UHGV virus genome: UHGV-0335474 | Origin: a virus | Length of the DNA: 36,185 nucleotides | Reading direction: 5' to 3' (one strand) | Part shown: positions 2,887 through 23,157 of the stretch, piece by piece | Position numbering within the stretch: position 1 is the stretch's first letter | How the letters are laid out: each line of letters begins with the position of its first letter | The notes under the pieces: generated by a model | The model's input: the letters and a program-made list of their open reading frames with translations, nothing else | Database searches by the model: none | Told to the model about the DNA's origin: nothing | Made by a program: the position numbers and the translations under genes

Positions 2887-3102
2887 ATGAAATCAATGGA
2901 CAAAATCTCAACTGGCATTGCCTACGGAACATCCGCTGGTAGTGCGGGATACTGGTTTTTGCAGTGGTTGGATCAGGTCAGCCCATCACAGTGGGCTGCG
3001 ATTGGAGTGCTTGGAAGCCTTGTGTTGGGCTTTCTCACCTATCTGACAAATCTGTACTTCAAAATCAGAGAAGACAGAAGAAAGGCTGCGAGAGGTGAAT
3101 AA
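2887..3102 (+). CDS. S: Class II holin (pinholin, S21-like) with dual-start motif
   Basis: 71 aa, [71 protein letters not shown]. Two Met codons (M1, M4) as in the phage 21 holin/antiholin; two TMDs. Confidence 0.9.
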
Positions 3103-3599
3103 TGCCTCCATCATTACGAAAAGCCGTTGCTGCTGCTATTGGTGGCGGAGCAATTGCTATAGCATCAGTGTTAATCACTGGCCCAGGTGGTAACGATGGT
3201 CTGGAAGGTGTCAGCTACATACCATACAAAGATATTGTTGGTGTATGGACTGTATGCCACGGACACATCGGAAAAGACATCATGCTCGGAAAAACGTATA
3301 CCGAAGCAGAATGCAAAGCCCTCCTGAATAAAGACCTTGCCACTGTCGCCAGACAAATTAACCCGTACATCAAAGTCGATATACCGGAAACAACGCGCGG
3401 CGCTCTTTACTCGTTCGTCTACAACGTGGGTGCTGGTAATTTCAGAACATCGACGCTTCTTCGCAAAATAAACCAGGGCGATATCAAAGGCTCATGTGAT
3501 CAGCTACGTCGCTGGACATATGCTGGCGGTAAGCAATGGAAAGGTCTCATGACTCGTCGTGAGATTGAGCGTGAAATCTGTTTGTGGGGTCAGCAATGA
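3102..3599 (+). CDS. R: SAR endolysin (R21-like lysozyme with N-terminal signal-anchor-release domain)
   Basis: Gly/Ala-rich hydrophobic N-terminus ([20 protein letters not shown]) followed by a lysozyme-like domain. TAATG overlap with S. Confidence 0.9.
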
Positions 3600-4063
3600 A
3601 CAGAGTAACCGCGATTATCTCCGCTCTGGTTATCTGCATCATCGTCTGCCTGTCATGGGCTGTTAATCATTACCGTGATAACGCCATGACCTACAAAGAG
3701 CAGCGCGACAAAAACGCCAGAGAATTGAAGCTTGCGAACTCGACAATTACTGATATGCAGCAGCGCCAGCGTGCTGCTGATGCACTCGATGCTAAATACA
3801 CGAAGGAGTTAGCTGATGCGAAAGCTGAAAATGATGCTCTTCGGCGCAAGCTTGATAATGGTGGTCGGGTGTTCGTCAAAGGAAAATGCCCTGTGCCATC
3901 CTCAGCCGAAACCTCCAGCGCCTCCGGCATGGGCAATGATGCCACCGTCGAACTCTCTCCAGTTGCTGGACGAAACGTTCTCGGTATCCGGGACGGAATT
4001 ATCCGCGACCAAACAGCACTGAGAACGCTTCAGGAATACATCAGGACGCAATGCCTTCGATGA
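3596..4063 (+). CDS. Rz: Spanin inner-membrane subunit Rz
   Basis: N-terminal TMD then coiled-coil periplasmic domain. ATGA overlap with the R stop; start at internal MNRV of the track ORF. Confidence 0.85.
3816..4022 (+). CDS. Rz1: Spanin outer-membrane lipoprotein Rz1, embedded in the +1 frame of Rz
   Basis: [21 protein letters not shown]: lipobox with Cys, then a Pro-rich segment [11 protein letters not shown], as in lambda Rz1. Confidence 0.8.
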
Positions 4064-4237
4064 TAGCGATAATTTTACTCATCATCCTTCACATCTGGCT
4101 CTGTAGACAGGATGGTGATCACTTCTGGAGTGAATCCAGATTAAACATCTCATTGCTGATGCTTGATATTGAGCATCTTGCGCGCGGTAAGGGGCTGCGT
4201 TGAGATAAGAGCCAGTCATCACAAACACCAGGATTTA

Positions 4238-4262
4238 GCCTCGCATTCGCGGGGCTTTTTAT
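4238..4262 (+). terminator. Rho-independent terminator after the lysis cassette
   Basis: Stem GCCTCGC/GCGGGGC (one G-T wobble), loop ATTC, then T5-T7 run. Confidence 0.55.
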
Positions 4263-4367
4263 TGCCATTACAAAAGCCATTCCCTACAGAGTGGCTTTGA
4301 TAATGGCTTATACCCTACACGGGATATCTTAACTGATATCCCTTTTAACGGATAAACGGAGCCAACA

Positions 4368-4610
4368 ATGGCAGAGATTATTCCCATGACTGAAGAACAG
4401 AAATTCCAGTTAGAGATTTACAAACTGGTCATGAACCAGAACGCAGCCGCAGAAGAAGCATTTCAATTCATTGGCACTGACGAACTGAAGCTTGAGCTAT
4501 TCAAAATTCACTTCCAGTCAGGCGGCGCTAATTCGGATATCACAACCCGCACTATCGAAGCGGTGCGTAAATCGAAGGAAGCGTTAGACCTGTTCACTAC
4601 CGGAGCGTAA
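4368..4610 (+). CDS. Hypothetical protein upstream of terminase
   Basis: 80-aa ORF with GGAG upstream; acidic, helical. No family recognised. Confidence 0.45.
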   Translation: MAEIIPMTEEQKFQLEIYKLVMNQNAAAEEAFQFIGTDELKLELFKIHFQSGGANSDITTRTIEAVRKSKEALDLFTTGA

Positions 4611-4689
4611 ACATGGCAACTCAAGGTTTCGACAACCCATCCAAATTCCGCGATGAATGGGATAAGCAAGCAGAAGGGAAATAATCAAT

Positions 4690-5115
4690 ATGGCGACTGA
4701 GAAAAAGAAAGGTGGTCGCCCCTCTGATTATATGCCGGAGGTGGCTAATGACATTTGCGCATTGCTTTCCTCTGGTGAGAGTCTGCGCAAAGTTTGCGAA
4801 CGCCCAGGAATGCCGAGCAAAACATCAGTTTTTCGCTGGCTGGCTGAACATCAGGAGTTTCGTGACCAGTACGCGAAGGCAACAGAGACTCGGGCCGACT
4901 CTATTTTCGAAGAGATATTCGAAATTGCTGACGACGTAATCCCTGATGCCGCCGAGGTGGCAAAGGCAAGACTTCGCGTTGATACCCGCAAATGGGCGCT
5001 GGCCAGAATGAATCCCCGTAAGTATGGCGACAAGGTAACTAATGAGCTTGTCGGCAAAGACGGCGGCGCAATCCAGATTGAAACATCACCGATGAGCACT
5101 CTATTCGGAAAATGA
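4690..5115 (+). CDS. Terminase small subunit (Sf6 gp1-like)
   Basis: 141 aa, MATEKKKGGRPSDYMPEVANDICALLSSGESLRKVCERPGMPSKTSVFRWLAEH..., HTH-type terS very similar to Sf6 gp1 as recalled. Confidence 0.85.
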   Translation: MATEKKKGGRPSDYMPEVANDICALLSSGESLRKVCERPGMPSKTSVFRWLAEHQEFRDQYAKATETRADSIFEEIFEIADDVIPDAAEVAKARLRVDTRKWALARMNPRKYGDKVTNELVGKDGGAIQIETSPMSTLFGK

Positions 5116-6527
5116 CCTCGATTAATCCTATCTTTGAACCGTTCATTGAGGCGCATCGCTACAAAGTCGCCAAAGGCGGTCGAGGTAGCGGTAAGTCATG
5201 GGCAATTGCGAGGCTTCTTGTTGAAGCGGCGCGTCGGCAGCCTGTGCGTATTCTTTGCGCTCGTGAGCTGCAAAACAGTATCAGCGATTCGGTAATCAGG
5301 TTGCTTGAAGACACCATCGAGCGTGAAGGGTATTCGGCTGAGTTTGAAATTCAGCGTTCAATGATTCGTCATCTCGGAACGAATGCTGAATTCATGTTCT
5401 ACGGCATCAAAAACAACCCGACGAAGATTAAATCGCTCGAAGGCATTGATATCTGCTGGGTGGAAGAAGCGGAAGCGGTAACAAAGGAATCGTGGGATAT
5501 CCTGATACCAACCATCCGCAAGCCGTTTTCCGAAATATGGGTGAGCTTTAACCCGAAGAACATCCTCGACGATACCTATCAGCGATTCGTCGTAAATCCT
5601 CCTGATGATATTTGTCTGCTGACGGTGAACTACACCGACAACCCGCACTTTCCTGAAGTTCTCCGTCTGGAGATGGAAGAGTGTAAACGCAGAAATCCGA
5701 CACTGTATCGTCACATCTGGCTTGGTGAGCCAGTAAGCGCAAGTGATATGGCAATCATCAAACGTGAATGGCTTGAAGCCGCAACCGATGCGCACAAGAA
5801 ACTCGGATGGAAAGCGAAAGGCGCGGTTGTCTCTGCGCATGACCCGTCAGATACAGGGCCAGATGCTAAAGGTTACGCATCGCGTCACGGTTCGGTGGTT
5901 AAGCGCATTGCCGAAGGCCTGCTGATGGACATCAACGAGGGTGCTGACTGGGCTACTTCGCTGGCGATTGAAGACGGCGCTGACCACTACCTGTGGGATG
6001 GCGATGGTGTCGGTGCCGGGCTACGCAGACAGACAACGGAAGCGTTCTCCGGTAAGAAAATCACCGCCACGATGTTCAAGGGCAGCGAATCGCCATTCGA
6101 TGAAGATGCGCCTTATCAGGCCGGGGCATGGGCTGATGAAGTCGTGCAGGGCGACAACGTTCGCACTATTGGCGATGTGTTCCGCAATAAGCGAGCGCAA
6201 TTCTATTACGCGCTGGCTGACAGGCTGTATCTGACATATCGGGCGGTTGTTTACGGTGAGTATGCAGACCCCGACGACATGCTGAGTTTCGACAAAGAAG
6301 CGATAGGCGAGAAGATGCTGGAGAAGCTGTTTGCAGAACTGACGCAGATTCAGCGCAAATTCAATAACAACGGGAAGCTGGAGCTTATGACTAAGGTCGA
6401 AATGAAGCAGAAGCTCGGTATTCCATCTCCTAACCTGGCTGATGCACTGATGATGTGTATGCATTGCCCGGAGTCGGCTGCGCAACCAGACTATTCCAGT
6501 TACTCAATTCCTTGTGGTGTAGGTTGA
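5112..6527 (+). CDS. Terminase large subunit
   Basis: 471 aa; Walker A GGRGSGKS near the N-terminus, nuclease-type C-terminus. ATGA overlap with terS. Confidence 0.9.
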   Translation: MTSINPIFEPFIEAHRYKVAKGGRGSGKSWAIARLLVEAARRQPVRILCARELQNSISDSVIRLLEDTIEREGYSAEFEIQRSMIRHLGTNAEFMFYGIKNNPTKIKSLEGIDICWVEEAEAVTKESWDILIPTIRKPFSEIWVSFNPKNILDDTYQRFVVNPPDDICLLTVNYTDNPHFPEVLRLEMEECKRRNPTLYRHIWLGEPVSASDMAIIKREWLEAATDAHKKLGWKAKGAVVSAHDPSDTGPDAKGYASRHGSVVKRIAEGLLMDINEGADWATSLAIEDGADHYLWDGDGVGAGLRRQTTEAFSGKKITATMFKGSESPFDEDAPYQAGAWADEVVQGDNVRTIGDVFRNKRAQFYYALADRLYLTYRAVVYGEYADPDDMLSFDKEAIGEKMLEKLFAELTQIQRKFNNNGKLELMTKVEMKQKLGIPSPNLADALMMCMHCPESAAQPDYSSYSIPCGVG

Positions 6528-18992: not shown

Positions 18993-19397
18993 CTAATTTT
19001 TATTCTTTGATCTCGTCCACAGGTAAAGAAGAGCAATGGCAAGACAGGAAACAGAGAATAGATAACCTACCTCATATGGTGCGCCAAAAAAATTAGCTAT
19101 TGATACGGGCAAAAAAGCCGAAGCGATCAGAATTGAAAGGCAAAAAATAAGCCCAGTAACATAGTTTATTAAACTCTTAAATGAGAAACGTTTTGCTTGA
19201 TTTACGGTCTCAGCGAGTGATCGCTTAACGATGGATAAAAGCAAATAGATGGCGACAGTAGCTAATGCCCCTTTCCACCAGTCTGGATATAGTTTTGCGA
19301 CAATCAGCCCAAGGAAAACCATGATGACAGACTGAGCATTCACACCAACCTCCTTAGTTTTGTGCAGGATACCAGATGATGTATGGAGAGGCATCAT
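18993..19397 (-). CDS. Integral membrane protein (sieA-equivalent position; possible superinfection exclusion)
   Basis: Multiple hydrophobic helices. An AAGGAGG SD sits in front of an internal GTG/ATG, so the true start may lie ~15-20 codons inside the track ORF. Confidence 0.4.
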   Translation of the reverse strand: MMPLHTSSGILHKTKEVGVNAQSVIMVFLGLIVAKLYPDWWKGALATVAIYLLLSIVKRSLAETVNQAKRFSFKSLINYVTGLIFCLSILIASAFLPVSIANFFGAPYEVGYLFSVSCLAIALLYLWTRSKNKN

Positions 19398-19479
19398 CTA
19401 CTGGTGATAGAACGATGATTGCAGATTGATATTACGATCTGTACACTTCCAGTAGAACCGTGTGTTCTCTGGAGGCGAT

Positions 19480-20133
19480 ATGGACAACATCTACATAGCT
19501 AGTTTTGGTGATATAGACATTCGTTTTGTTAATGTCGACGATGATGTGTTTGTGTCTCAAGGGGATTTTGTCCGTGCAATGGAGTCGTGTCTCACTGATG
19601 ATATGAAACACATAGCTGGTATTTTCATCAGTGGTGGTGTGAGAATTGTTGGCGATTCTAGTGATAGCCGCTCTGCAATACTTGGCGACAGTCTAATTGG
19701 GCCAGCTATTCATTTTCATGCGGTAGGCAATATTCTTACCTCATTGGTTGAAATGAGTAATGAGGAAAACCCCTCTTTAAGAGAGAGTTGTTATCGCATG
19801 AATAGCTTATTGCAGTGGTACACGATAGCTTTATCCAAGGCCGATGAGTATTTTGGTCGTGATGTTGTTGACTTGCTATCTTCAGTAAAAAGGCGTCTTG
19901 ATCGACTTAACGCTCCATATACCGTAAACGTCCTTCATGATGGGGGTGTTTGGGTTGCAACATGCGATGAGCTTGGATTAGTTACAGAAGCTCCAGATTA
20001 TGAATCTCTTACTGAAAGAGTGTGGGATGTCGCTGGAGATATGCTGGTTGAGAATGGTATAGATCAAGACGTAGAAAGCCTGCGCTTTTCCTTCGTTCAG
20101 GAGCAGGTGTCTGATGACAGGATGGCGCTATAA
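19480..20133 (+). CDS. HicB-like antitoxin-domain protein with N-terminal Bro-N/AntA-like extension
   Basis: C-terminal YTVNVLHDGGVWVATCDELGLVTEAPDYESLTERVWDVAG fits the HicB N-domain pattern; N-terminal FGDIDIRFVNVDDDVFVSQGDFVRAME resembles Bro-N. GGAGG SD before the ATG at 19480; track ORF begins at 19462. Confidence 0.5.
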   Translation: MDNIYIASFGDIDIRFVNVDDDVFVSQGDFVRAMESCLTDDMKHIAGIFISGGVRIVGDSSDSRSAILGDSLIGPAIHFHAVGNILTSLVEMSNEENPSLRESCYRMNSLLQWYTIALSKADEYFGRDVVDLLSSVKRRLDRLNAPYTVNVLHDGGVWVATCDELGLVTEAPDYESLTERVWDVAGDMLVENGIDQDVESLRFSFVQEQVSDDRMAL

Positions 20134-20136
20134 GAA

Positions 20137-20334
20137 ATGGGGCAGGGGCTTTATCCAGAACTGAAAGAGTTATTGTTGTCCTACAACTGTTATTTTGTGC
20201 GTCAGGGTAAAGGTAGCCATGAGATATGGCGAAGCCCTATCACGAAAAAGGCATTTAGCGTTCCATTTACTATAGTTTCAAGGCATACGGCTAACGCAAT
20301 TCTTCGCCAGGCAGGAATAAACAAGAAAATTTAA
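20137..20334 (+). CDS. hicA: HicA-family toxin (mRNA interferase)
   Basis: 65 aa, VRQGKGSHEIWRSP...SVPFTIVSRHTANAILRQAGI matches the HicA consensus (GSH motif, C-terminal ILKQAGL-like). Confidence 0.7.
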   Translation: MGQGLYPELKELLLSYNCYFVRQGKGSHEIWRSPITKKAFSVPFTIVSRHTANAILRQAGINKKI

Positions 20335-20357
20335 CCCACCGTCAGGTGGGTTTTTTT
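20335..20357 (+). terminator. Rho-independent terminator after hicA
   Basis: CCCACC-GTCA-GGTGGG hairpin followed by T7. Confidence 0.8.
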
Positions 20358-20389: not shown

Positions 20390-20575
20390 ATGACCATAGA
20401 AGAACGTCTGAACAACATTGAGTTGAATCAAACCCTGCTTGACCAGCGACTTTCAGATCTTGAGCTTAAAGATCTAGATGTGCAAATATCAGAAGCAGAA
20501 GCCAAGCTCTCCAGCTTAAACCACCGCAGGAAGCAAATCCGCGACAGAATTACTCGTGGACGCGGAGGCTGTTAA
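20390..20575 (+). CDS. Small coiled-coil hypothetical protein
   Basis: 61 aa with AAGGA SD; heptad-like sequence. Could be non-coding. Confidence 0.3.
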   Translation: MTIEERLNNIELNQTLLDQRLSDLELKDLDVQISEAEAKLSSLNHRRKQIRDRITRGRGGC

Positions 20576-20652: not shown

Positions 20653-21189
20653 TCAAACAACCCACCAGTTTGCCTGATTGGATACCAGCCTTGCAGTTTT
20701 TATGGAATTAATTATGCCATGCTCAAGAGCCTTGTTAGCATCCAAAATGGTCGAGTCTGCTATCAGGGATGCCCACCTAATATGGGTTCCGATGTCGATA
20801 TTGAACGTCTCAACGAAGCGATCAAGATCGTTATCGAGGCATTTCCCGTACTCTCTCAATCTGGCATGGTCGGCGGCTGGGGAGGCAAAGCACCATAATA
20901 GAGGATGTAACAGGAATCTTGATAATGGGTTTGCGAAACGTTCTGAGCCAGCCAGGAAAACGATATTAGCTATGGATTCAACATTGCTTATGTTGTGAGT
21001 TCTAACGGTAACAGGGAGTGACTTAAGAAAGTTATACGCAGTAAAGCCAGCGGCAGTTTCCCCTCCCTGACTTGATATATGGATATTTAATTCAGTTGCG
21101 CCTTGAGATAATGCGGTGAGACAGTGGTTCTGAAGTTGCCCAACAGTGGCAGTGTTAACGGGGCATAAGAAATGAATTGTGTGCAGCAT
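20653..21189 (-). CDS. ClpP-like serine peptidase (S14-family fold)
   Basis: 178 aa; aligns by eye to the ClpP core (ISSQGG vs INSPGG, Ser in NVESIAN vs GQAASMG, His in RFLLHPL vs RVMIHQP). Start overlaps the mnt stop (TAATG). Confidence 0.65.
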   Translation of the reverse strand: MLHTIHFLCPVNTATVGQLQNHCLTALSQGATELNIHISSQGGETAAGFTAYNFLKSLPVTVRTHNISNVESIANIVFLAGSERFANPLSRFLLHPLLWCFASPAADHARLREYGKCLDNDLDRFVETFNIDIGTHIRWASLIADSTILDANKALEHGIINSIKTARLVSNQANWWVV

Positions 21190-21443
21190 TATTTATCATC
21201 CTTGCCATAAATCTTTTTAAGTGTCTCAAACACAACGGCCTTGAACTGCTCTGCTTGCTGATCAGCCAAGCGTTCAGCTTCGTCGCGATATCCTGTAATC
21301 GGTGATGGTTTTGATAGTGCATCCTGAACGATTTGTAATAACTCAGAGTTCATTGACCTTCCGTTAGCCTCGGCTCTTAATTTCAATTTTTCTCTTACTT
21401 CCAAAGGCATACGGAAGTTAAAGTGCGGATCGTCTCTAGCCAT
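21189..21443 (-). CDS. mnt: Mnt repressor (ribbon-helix-helix)
   Basis: 84 aa, MARDDPHFNFRMPLEVREKLKLRAEANGRSMNSELLQIVQDALSKPSPITGYR..., near-identical to P22 Mnt as recalled. Confidence 0.85.
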   Translation of the reverse strand: MARDDPHFNFRMPLEVREKLKLRAEANGRSMNSELLQIVQDALSKPSPITGYRDEAERLADQQAEQFKAVVFETLKKIYGKDDK

Positions 21444-21466
21444 GCCATCACTCCAAGTTAGTATCT

Positions 21467-21730
21467 CTAACTTTCGTCTTTATTGTTGCTATACATGCAT
21501 TTCAACTTCTCAACATCATGTTCAAGATCTATCAATCGTGATGCTATAGTTGCAAGGTCTAGTGCTTGAATGTGTTTATTTTTTTCGGTCCATGCTTCAA
21601 GTGCCGCGACCATCTCAGCATTTAATGAACGAGAATTAGCCTCAGCCAGTTCAATAAGACGTTCCTTTATCTCTACAGGAAGCCTCAGATTCACTTGAGG
21701 GTTTTTGTACTTACGATCAGACATCGGCAC
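21467..21730 (-). CDS. Arc/Mnt-family ribbon-helix-helix DNA-binding protein
   Basis: 87 aa, VNLRLPVEIKERLIELAEANSRSLNAEMVAALEAW: RHH motif. First gene of the leftward mnt operon. Confidence 0.6.
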   Translation of the reverse strand: MPMSDRKYKNPQVNLRLPVEIKERLIELAEANSRSLNAEMVAALEAWTEKNKHIQALDLATIASRLIDLEHDVEKLKCMYSNNKDES

Positions 21731-21761
21731 ATCCTGAATAATTTTTTACCACAGGATATGT

Positions 21762-21790
21762 AGGTATCTATTGACTATCAATGCGTACCT
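21762..21790. promoter_or_regulatory. Nested palindromic operator-like element in the divergent immI-like promoter region
   Basis: AGGTA-TCT-ATTGA-CTA-TCAAT-GCG-TACCT, plus a direct repeat ATGCGTACC x2 at 21781-21809, between the leftward RHH/mnt operon and the rightward arc-like/ant operon. Confidence 0.45.
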
Positions 21791-21829
21791 AAATACTATG
21801 TATGCGTACCACATATAACGGAGGATGCA

Positions 21830-21970
21830 ATGAAGGTAAAAACACTGCGTATGCCAGAGAAGTTAGAAAAAATCCTTGAAGAGAAAGCAAAGGAAGAGTG
21901 TCGCTCATTTAGTGCAGAAGTAATTAAACGGGTGATGGACAGCCTGAAGAGAGAGGGGATAACGGTATGA
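21830..21970 (+). CDS. arc: Arc-like repressor (ribbon-helix-helix), 46 aa
   Basis: Read manually (below track cutoff): MKVKTLRMPEKLEKILEEKAKEECRSFSAEVIKRVMDSLKREGITV, resembling P22 Arc as recalled. GGAGG SD 5 nt upstream. Confidence 0.6.
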   Translation: MKVKTLRMPEKLEKILEEKAKEECRSFSAEVIKRVMDSLKREGITV

Positions 21971-22170
21971 GTAAAGAATGTTGTTTCTGCGGCATTAGCG
22001 AATCAGACGCTGATCAAACATACATTTACTCTAAAGAAACAGGTCGGATGCTGTGTAGTGACTGCGTGTTGGACATCATAAGATACAAGCATCTTGGATG
22101 TTCTGCCAGCATTAGCAATATAGGTGAAGTATATGAAGGGAAAGATATAACTGATAGAGCAGAAAGTTGA
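21967..22170 (+). CDS. Small Cys-rich (zinc-ribbon-like) hypothetical protein
   Basis: 67 aa with CCFC...CSDC; ATGA overlap with the arc-like stop. Confidence 0.4.
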   Translation: MSKECCFCGISESDADQTYIYSKETGRMLCSDCVLDIIRYKHLGCSASISNIGEVYEGKDITDRAES

Positions 22171-22233
22171 AGCCCCAACTGCGGTAACAGTCAGGGCTTC
22201 GGTATCGTAAAACCACGCATAGGAATTAACGAC

Positions 22234-23157
22234 ATGACGAGTGTAGCAATTGCAGAACATACAATCAACGTTCCATTCCACGGCGCAGAGCTTTATGTTG
22301 TCAATCACAACGGCGAACCGTATACCCCAATGAAACCTATCGTTGAGGGAATGGGGCTAGACTGGAAATCTCAACATAAGAAGATTTCTCAACGCTTCTC
22401 GAAGGGTATGGTGGAAATCACCATACCTTCTGCCGGTGGGGTGCAAGCCATGATTTGTATGGCTTTACGAAAATTGGCAGCTTGGTTGAACAGCATCAGT
22501 CCTAACAAAGTCCGCCCTGAAATCCGCGACAAGGTAATCCAGTATCAGGAAGAGTGTGACGATGTGCTCTACGAGTACTGGACTAAAGGCTATGTAGTTA
22601 ACCCACGCAAATCTAAAAAGGCGTTGCCGGGTAAAATCACCACTGAACAGCAGGAAGCCATTAAACAACTCGTCATGAGTCGCGGTCAGTCTCTGCCAAA
22701 AGAAAAACAGGCTAAGGCGATGATCACCATGTGGTCGTCACTGAAATCCCATTTTGGATGTTCGTACAAAGAAATCAGTGAGGAGCAGTTTACCGAAGCA
22801 CTGTCACTTGCTGCTCGCGTTCCGCTTGAAGGTGAGTTCATTGGCAAACAAGAGAAGAAAACCAACGAGCTTTCTGCAAAAGAAGCAAACAGCCTTGTAT
22901 GGTTATGGGATTATGCCAACCGTTCACAGGCATTATTCCGCGAACTGTATCCGGCGCTAAAACAAATTCAATCGAACTATTCCGGCAGATGCTACGACTA
23001 CGGTCATGAGTTCTCGTATGTTATCGGAATGGCGAGAGACGTTTTAATCAATCACACACGAGATGTTGATATTAATGAGCCAGACGGACCAACGAATCTT
23101 TCCGCATGGATGAGACTTAAGAATAAAGAATTACCTCCTTCAGTACATAACTACTGA
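22234..23157 (+). CDS. ant: Antirepressor (Ant; AntA-like N-terminal domain)
   Basis: 307 aa downstream of arc in an immI-like layout; N-terminal FHG.ELYVV..NGEP pattern. Confidence 0.65.
   Translation: MTSVAIAEHTINVPFHGAELYVVNHNGEPYTPMKPIVEGMGLDWKSQHKKISQRFSKGMVEITIPSAGGVQAMICMALRKLAAWLNSISPNKVRPEIRDKVIQYQEECDDVLYEYWTKGYVVNPRKSKKALPGKITTEQQEAIKQLVMSRGQSLPKEKQAKAMITMWSSLKSHFGCSYKEISEEQFTEALSLAARVPLEGEFIGKQEKKTNELSAKEANSLVWLWDYANRSQALFRELYPALKQIQSNYSGRCYDYGHEFSYVIGMARDVLINHTRDVDINEPDGPTNLSAWMRLKNKELPPSVHNY

Follow-up and report, generated by a model that had tools for sequence, protein, structure and literature searches.

What does a gene for a ClpP-like serine protease do when it sits at the distal end of the mnt repressor operon of a P22-like phage, well away from the genes for head assembly? 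The question is raised by the virus genome UHGV-0335474, a stretch of 36,185 nucleotides that is referred to here as the window. The initial annotation regarded the gene as an accessory function expressed with a maintenance repressor, and its physical coupling to mnt is confirmed here. We describe the locus, the predicted protein, and its relatives elsewhere, and then consider what the gene might contribute to a lysogen.

Organization of the immI region

The phage genome in the window is P22-like (Lederbergvirus-type), with a large terminase, P22-type ejection proteins, an integrase, and a tailspike whose head-binding domain is that of P22. Portal, scaffold and coat genes of the P22 type follow one another without an intervening protease gene, and lie about 10 kb from the ClpP-like gene, in agreement with the original statement that this phage type uses no prohead protease and that the gene is remote from the head genes. 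The immI region is flanked by a gene 16 homologue and the tailspike gene. Three leftwards-transcribed genes span 21730–20653 in the order RHH, Mnt, ClpP-like, as first annotated from the open reading frames, and Arc, Ant and the tailspike lie to their right. The features of the region are as follows.

20653..21189, minus strand: ClpP-like gene, 178 aa, predicted short ClpP paralogue of the PpClpP1 type (ORF; Pfam PF00574; AF2; match to 9uxt)
21189..21443, minus strand: Mnt repressor orthologue, 84 aa, second leftwards gene (ORF; Pfam Arc and Repressor_Mnt)
21467..21730, minus strand: extra Arc/Mnt-family RHH protein, 87 aa, GTG start, first leftwards gene (ORF; Pfam Arc, 3.4e-10)
21189..21203, minus strand: mnt/ClpP-like coupling junction, with an AAGGA Shine-Dalgarno sequence at 21203–21199 and TAATG at 21191–21187 (read from the sequence)
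21753..21799, no strand assigned: overlapping divergent sigma-70-like promoter candidates (consensus scan and repeat finder; pattern matches only)
21830..23157, plus strand: rightwards half of immI, comprising Arc, a 67-aa phrog_7150 protein, and Ant
21830–21970, plus strand: Arc (Pfam Arc, 2.9e-09)
21967–22170, plus strand: 67-aa phrog_7150 protein (PHROGs)
22234–23157, plus strand: antirepressor Ant (Pfam P22_AR_N, 9e-45; P22_AR_C, 6e-30)

The assignment of the second leftwards gene as mnt is secure: the product matches both Pfam Arc (4e-28) and Repressor_Mnt, the C-terminal domain (4e-12), the gene has about 85% DNA identity to P22 mnt (megablast), and the protein is 81% identical to P22 Mnt. 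The arrangement is that of a P22-type immI, in which an Mnt with an Arc domain and an Mnt C-terminal domain is divergent from arc-ant and lies between the ejection genes and the tailspike. The 87-aa RHH protein corresponds to the second 'mnt' of the CUS-3 type, and the DNA is 97.6% identical to a CUS-3 region annotated with two mnt genes. Between gene 16 and mnt, in a variable part of the genome, the window has HicAB.

The mnt junction and candidate promoters

On the minus strand the boundary between mnt and the ClpP-like gene reads ...GGCAAGGATGATAAATAATGCTG..., in which the mnt TAA (21191–21189) and the ClpP-like ATG (21189–21187) have one base in common and thus form the TAATG overlap originally reported. 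The AAGGA Shine-Dalgarno sequence is 9 nt upstream of the ClpP-like start and lies within mnt codons. The junction ...TATG(G/C)(C/T)AAGGATGA(T/A)AAATAATG is kept in 35 loci behind 20 distinct mnt upstream sequences, all of which converge on a common last ~20 nt, ...TATGGNAAGGATGANAAATAATG. One locus (L017) is a hybrid, with an RHH gene of the window's 87-aa type that now ends in the shared ~20-nt tail. With 20 upstream sequences joined to a common tail and this hybrid, the mnt 3' end thus behaves as a recombination joint. With its predicted embedded ribosome-binding site, this 3' end carries the ClpP-like gene behind differing mnt alleles.

The gap between the RHH gene and arc is 99 bp and holds both divergent promoter-like sites together with 21-nt operator-like repeats. 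A consensus scan places a leftward candidate promoter for the RHH, mnt and ClpP-like genes at 21781–21753 (TTGATA-17-TATCCT) and a rightward candidate for arc-ant at 21771–21799 (TTGACT-17-TACTAT); the leftward, Pmnt-like call is a weak consensus match (9/12), and the number of such sites does not exceed that expected from shuffled sequence. No promoter-like site was found by the same scan between the Pmnt-like site and the ClpP-like gene, and a scan of this region for terminator-like sites found none between mnt and the ClpP-like gene. A repeat finder locates the operator-like 21-nt repeats at 21764–21805 and an inverted repeat at 21757–21795. A search for the P22-type mnt operator GGTCCACNGTGGACC gave no matches with up to three mismatches. 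The operators of the window appear to differ from the P22-type mnt operator, with the repeats at 21764–21805 as the candidates in its place.

Features of the ClpP-like protein

The 178-aa protein matches Pfam CLP_protease (PF00574) with E=2.2e-11 and 44.4 bits, relative to a gathering score of 20.2, and an AF2 monomer model built on 62 homologues has a mean pLDDT of 94.6. The model superimposes on E. coli ClpP (EcClpP; 1yg6) with a TM of 0.83 and an rmsd of 2.2 Å over 170 columns (Foldseek), and predicts an S14/ClpP alpha/beta fold with a handle helix. A spurious ClpP similarity, which the initial annotation had named as one outcome that would undo its assignment, is at odds with both the Pfam score and the structural match. 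In the ClpP-like core, the Gly-Gly motif (G42 G43) is the counterpart of EcClpP G67/G68, and Ser72 and His95 are those of Ser97 and His122, as first proposed; all are invariant in 62/62 homologues of the family alignment. They are among 18 residues that are invariant in the 62-sequence alignment, comprising the SxGG motif, Ser72, His95, Arg91 and 12 others. Structural modeling had been suggested as a check of both fold and catalytic residues, and while the fold, Ser72 and His95 hold up, the catalytic Asp is absent: EcClpP Asp171 aligns with Ser146, a position occupied by A, S or G across the family.

Two further features set the protein apart from EcClpP. The alignment pairs residue 1 with position 24 of mature EcClpP, so there is no N-terminal axial loop; and six of the eight residues of the LGF/IGF docking pocket for ClpX/ClpA are polar, with the changes Y60N, Y62H, F82S, I90H, L114N and L189K relative to EcClpP, as judged from the alignment. 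The TIGR00493 clpP equivalog (NCBIfam) scores 19.2 bits, well short of its cut-off of 308.6. We conclude that, as predicted from its sequence, the protein is not a canonical ClpX/ClpA-docking ClpP.

The closest structural relative is bacterial. In a search of the PDB with the family profile, 9UXT scores far above all canonical ClpPs (E=1.5e-51, positions 3–179 versus 4–182), and the AF2 model matches 9uxt_A with a TM of 0.93 and 38% identity (Foldseek). This structure is ClpP1 of Pseudomonas plecoglossicida (PpClpP1), a 183-aa protein with a truncated N-terminus and the residues Ser73-His96-Pro151 (PLoS Pathog 2026; PMC12900304). PpClpP1 forms a homotetradecamer with a dilated axial pore of 42.7 Å, its peptidase activity is about 13-fold below that of the canonical PpClpP2, and this activity requires the Ser and the His, with the third residue being dispensable (PMC12900304). 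It does not bind ClpX, but in a heterotetradecamer with canonical ClpP2 the activity is higher, both alone and with ClpX (PMC12900304). By sequence and predicted structure, then, the product is a 'short ClpP' of the PpClpP1 type, an S14 subunit that is truncated at its N-terminus. In an exhaustive profile search, 244 clusters (formed at 50% identity) reached E<=1e-30, and the majority of the 150 listed are 180–200 aa long; short ClpPs therefore constitute a sizeable family, and among its members we found none characterized other than PpClpP1. We had considered phage proteases as the nearest relatives and dropped this idea, because the ClpP-like proteins of viruses in BFVD, with 25% identity or less and E about 1e-15, are poorer structural matches than the bacterial 9UXT.

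The ClpP-like gene is under strong purifying selection. The pN values are far below pS in all pairs of ClpP-like genes, and dN/dS is 0.08 for the two non-saturated pairs, among them that with the 79%-identical Pectobacterium orthologue; the ratio is quoted for these two only because dS is saturated in all but the closest pairs.

Distribution and genomic context of homologues

The comparison draws on 103 loci, taken from phage records, E. coli genomes, IMG/VR and assemblies, and scripted surveys of genomic context took in 94 of these. The ClpP-like gene lies directly behind an Arc/Mnt-family gene, with an identical 1-nt overlap, at 37 loci; these are 34 at 97% identity or more, which are all of the intact copies at that identity with the exception of one (L046), and three of a 79%-identical Pectobacterium type, two of them from Pectobacterium assemblies. 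In L046, the sole exception, the gene in front is a different RHH gene that extends about 34 nt past the ClpP-like start. Across the 37 loci, identity to the window's Mnt varies between 35 and 98% for the RHH partner, and the ClpP-like protein is 98–100% identical (79% in Pectobacterium). A Providencia homologue with 66% identity is also located behind mnt in a P22-like immI, separated by a 30-nt gap, and the gene is thus downstream of mnt in Escherichia, Pectobacterium and Providencia.

The second RHH gene is not a regular part of this cassette, as most carriers have a single mnt. The order seen in the window (87-aa RHH, P22-type Mnt, ClpP-like) is repeated only in one IMG/VR contig (L019), and coverage of the 1.9-kb region reaches 80% in none of the complete E. 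coli genomes; the three-gene combination is a mosaic. Phage CUS-3 has both RHH genes, but its downstream cargo is different and includes a YafO-like toxin. The cassette can also travel, and in lambda-like PhiR12 phages clpP-like, mnt, arc and ant are inserted together between tail genes L and K.

Homologues with 51–74% identity, in Leclercia, Klebsiella, other E. coli prophages and Chromobacterium, are without an RHH gene. They are solitary and usually antisense, and are found between the spanin/lysozyme genes and the terminase, or beside tail-fibre genes; at 29 of the 48 distant loci the gene is within 1.5 kb of lysis genes, and on the opposite strand in every case. Collectively, the ClpP-like genes are present in lambda-like, P2/Mu-like and P22-like prophages, outside of their head modules. 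In one carrier prophage there is a KAP NTPase near the ClpP-like gene.

Among 5426 complete E. coli genomes, 128 have the gene with a nucleotide identity of at least 95%, and in 127 of these the identity is at least 99%. These carriers (about 2.4%) include S88, an extraintestinal-pathogenic strain, as well as avian-pathogenic (APEC) isolates. Whereas immI-like DNA occurs in about 820 E. coli genomes, only about 128 contain the ClpP-like gene. Two copies are disrupted, by an IS5 insertion (L053) and by a 5' replacement (L065), with intact mnt/RHH genes beside them; the ClpP-like gene is therefore dispensable. The data fit a picture, drawn from these sequence comparisons, in which the ClpP-like gene is a mobile prophage cargo (moron) in Enterobacterales that would act on its own, and in which P22-like phages would have captured it as the distal cistron of the mnt operon.

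Possible functions of the ClpP-like gene

By analogy with PpClpP1, we lean towards the view that the gene provides a lysogen-expressed ClpP isoform of the short-ClpP type that modifies host Clp proteolysis. Its transcription would start at the mnt promoter and its translation would be coupled to that of mnt, and the protein would hence be made whenever Mnt is, in the lysogen. The P22 Pmnt is active in lysogens and is shut down by Arc in lytic growth. The phage protein may assemble as a wide-pored tetradecamer with weak peptidase activity, as PpClpP1 does, and/or it may stack with host ClpP rings; it would itself be unable to recruit ClpX/ClpA, and would change how active host ClpXP/ClpAP are, or the spectrum of their products. 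The prophage or lysogen might benefit if a Clp substrate, of phage or host origin, were turned over differently, or if superinfecting phages were hindered. Lysogens of Kapi1, a P22-like phage of E. coli, gave no detectable mnt mRNA (PMC12922286), and expression from Pmnt may therefore be very low. A more elaborate form of the proposal, which we put forward tentatively and consider rather doubtful, is that temperate phages of Enterobacteria encode a ClpP subunit that stacks on or mixes into host ClpP rings in the lysogen and re-programs ClpXP/ClpAP, with a change in the fate of substrates such as replication, SOS, switch or superinfecting-phage proteins. If so, the promoter of the maintenance repressor would confine this hijack of a host protease to the prophage state.

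The main rival explanation is a stand-alone anti-phage or superinfection-exclusion protease that degrades ejection, scaffold or capsid proteins of incoming phages and does not need host ClpP. The gene is in a classic cargo slot, the variable region from gene 16 to mnt that holds sieA in P22, the YafO-like toxin pair in CUS-3, and HicAB in the window, and other homologues occupy an antisense slot beside lysis genes, with the KAP NTPase nearby in the one prophage; such placement is circumstantial. The nearest PHROGs are head maturation proteases (phrog_94, 7e-21), which makes structural proteins of phages conceivable as substrates, but by structure and sequence together the nearest relative is a bacterial housekeeping-type paralogue, 9uxt, and not a phage protease. 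The 178-aa protein has no sensor or targeting domain, we found no literature on ClpP-like genes in prophages or defence to this effect, and PADLOC gave no match: PADLOC-DB 2.0.0 returned no families at E<=0.01 for the ClpP-like, Mnt and RHH proteins, and nothing relevant in neighboring proteins. We regard an exclusion protease as unlikely. The same PHROGs similarity could be taken to indicate a prohead protease displaced by rearrangement, as could the 'head maturation protease' annotation of phiv205-1, and the few disrupted copies might suggest a decaying, functionless remnant. Both are highly improbable. The P22-type head module of portal, scaffold and coat has no protease step, the gene is about 10 kb from it, and the protein has no C-terminal scaffold or targeting extension; the NCBIfam head-protease model Clp_rel_HeadMat (NF045542) gives 49.3 bits relative to a cut-off of 120, the NCBIfam matches being limited to sub-threshold ClpP and head-protease models; and the gene lies outside the head modules of the lambda-like, P2/Mu-like and P22-like prophages that carry it. 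These observations also speak against the mis-localised prohead protease that the initial annotation had allowed for, and a dN/dS of 0.08 with 18 invariant residues is not that of a decaying gene.

A role tied to immI itself is also improbable, though less so than a displaced or decaying head protease. Here the protein would process or degrade Mnt, Arc, the extra RHH protein or Ant, or would be the toxin of an RHH-antitoxin/protease-toxin addiction pair; the initial annotation had proposed both an addiction- or defence-like module of two RHH regulators and a protease, and the processing of a repressor or antirepressor. Tight translational coupling to mnt in three genera, and the movement of clpP-like, mnt, arc and ant as one unit into lambda-like phages, are what such a role would favor. 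Yet the RHH partner is freely swapped (35–98% identity) beside a ClpP-like gene that is 98–100% identical, and near many homologues RHH, Arc and Ant are all lacking. A partner that is interchangeable and often absent does not agree with an enzyme devoted to Mnt, Arc or Ant, and the processing proposal is not sustained. In the other direction, P22 and CUS-3 have an immI that functions without the ClpP-like gene, and of the roughly 820 E. coli genomes that have immI-like DNA only about 128 have the gene. The module proposal is not supported, in view of the variable RHH partner, the RHH-less homologues, and the PADLOC result. For an addiction pair specifically, we looked for a conserved, co-varying RHH/ClpP-like pairing and did not find one, and rejected this candidate; disrupted copies persist beside an intact RHH gene with mnt retained, which is a poor fit to a toxin/antitoxin pair.

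Annotation and significance

The fold and the short-ClpP subfamily are known already. The RefSeq name of the protein is 'ATP-dependent Clp protease proteolytic subunit', and the gene is labelled 'head maturation protease' in at least one phage record (phiv205-1). By the features tested, neither label fits, as the gene product is not a canonical ClpX/ClpA-docking ClpP and not a head protease, and we classify it as a phage-borne short ClpP in a new regulatory setting, the mnt operon. Our literature searches found nothing on phage-borne short ClpPs or their coupling to mnt, and no description of a phage-encoded ClpP subunit outside of capsid maturation; reviews citing phiv205-1 credit other genes with its effects on biofilm and colonisation. 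A bacterial paralogue with 38% identity, whose structure and biochemistry date from 2026, leads to a concrete hypothesis, the formation of hetero-oligomers with host ClpP, which is readily testable by E. coli genetics. If true, this would be a new class of lysogenic-conversion function, and if false, the gene is one more prophage moron.

Comparison with known systems

Phages are known to modulate host proteases by small inhibitors, such as T4 PinA acting on Lon and lambda CIII acting on FtsH. The ClpP-related prohead proteases (NF045542; phrog_94) are, like the window gene, phage-encoded with a ClpP fold and detectable profile similarity, but the window gene is without a scaffold or capsid fusion and belongs to a phage type that matures its capsid without proteolysis. 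EcClpP shares the fold, the SxGG oxyanion motif, the Ser and His, and the long handle helix, but with about 20% identity, and the phage protein is without the first ~23 mature residues and the catalytic Asp. The likeness to PpClpP1 is greater, with full-length homology, near-equal length (178 versus 183 aa), an equivalent N-terminal truncation that removes the axial loop, Ser and His at matching positions (72/95 versus 73/96), and a non-acidic third residue in both, although this is Pro151 in PpClpP1 and Ser146 in the phage protein. In Pseudomonas and Azotobacter, genes of the PpClpP1 type belong to the chromosome and lie beside KGG/CsbD-type stress genes, whereas the window gene is phage-borne and mnt-coupled; as these chromosomal genes are not in prophages, their biology may differ. 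The P22 immI has the Mnt orthologue, the divergent arc-ant, and the placement between the gene 16 homologue and the tailspike in common with the window, but the window has an additional RHH gene upstream of mnt, and in place of the P22 cargo the mnt cistron is joined at its 3' end to a ClpP-like gene.

Mobility of the cassette and its cargo

Relatives of the ClpP-like gene and its neighbors were examined in comparison loci from other phages and from E. coli prophages, and features of some of these loci are listed here.

Features of the comparison loci
L002 (PhiR12_1, PV340549.1), 4023-6035: entire immI cassette (clpP-like, mnt, arc, ant), inserted between tail-tip genes L and K
L003 (CUS-3), 2900-3903 (-): 199-aa protein and overlapping 139-aa YafO-family toxin (Pfam, 3.2e-11)
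L012, 3275-3823 (+): 182-aa gene upstream of a ClpP-like paralogue; also in L077-L083
L053, 2619-4354: inactivated ClpP-like copy, split after residue ~63 by an IS5-type transposase gene
L065, 3284-4372: inactivated ClpP-like copy, first ~55 codons replaced

The backbone of PhiR12_1 is that of a lambda-like siphovirus; it follows that the cassette moves between backbones of the podovirus and the siphovirus type. CUS-3 has two mnt genes; downstream of them, in the slot that the ClpP-like gene fills in the window, lie the two overlapping genes listed above, which are probably toxin-antitoxin cargo.

The C-terminal tail of the 87-aa ribbon-helix-helix (RHH) protein (…DVEKLKCMY…; 21467-21530, leftwards) is similar to that of Mnt (…FETLKKIYGKDDK), and locus L017 (2310-2567) has a hybrid RHH gene, with an 87-aa-type N-terminus and a Mnt-type tail, that is fused to the ClpP-like start. 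This likeness together with the hybrid points to recombination inside the short tail homology. In L065, it is a gene for a 105-aa signal-peptide protein, in place of the ClpP-like gene, that is coupled to the RHH gene.

The conserved 182-aa gene belongs to a single lineage of E. coli prophages, where it lies on the same strand as the ClpP-like paralogue (52% identical) and 79 nt upstream of it; its product, without a family match, is possibly a partner or regulator.

Genes and sites flanking the operon

Features of the window
18993-19397 (-): 134-aa predicted membrane protein, directly after the gene 16 homologue
19462-20334 (+): HicA toxin (65 aa; Pfam HicA_toxin, 1.9e-10) and preceding 223-aa protein
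20333-20352: bidirectional terminator-like hairpin, 3' of the HicA gene
20390-20575 (+): 61-aa coiled-coil protein (phrog_7586, 1e-43; XhlA similarity weak)
21764-21805: two 21-nt direct repeats, GTATCTATTGACTATCAATGC / GTACCTAAATACTATGTATGC, overlapping divergent promoter-like sites

No family match was found for the membrane protein, whose gene occupies the site of the exclusion gene sieA in P22. The HicB-like DUF1902 / phrog_3448 domain of the 223-aa protein is confined to its C-terminal ~70 residues, the N-terminal extension (~150 residues) being without a family match. The coiled-coil gene, whose relatives carry the RefSeq name 'hemolysin XhlA family protein', and the ClpP-like gene are convergent, their stops being no more than 77 nt apart; in some E. 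coli prophages the two travel together (matches spanning the query from base 1).

An 18-nt imperfect palindrome also overlaps the divergent promoter-like sites. Although the window and P22 Mnt proteins have nearly identical N-termini, a search of the window for a P22-type mnt operator (≤3 mismatches) found none.

The ClpP-like C-terminus

The ClpP-like proteins keep a C-terminal NWWV(x)C motif (residues 173-178 of the window protein in the homologue alignment), with Trp175 nearly invariant, and the segment forms a terminal beta-strand in the predicted model. Canonical ClpP has nothing equivalent, and PpClpP1, the short ClpP of Pseudomonas plecoglossicida, ends in …PQWSVH.
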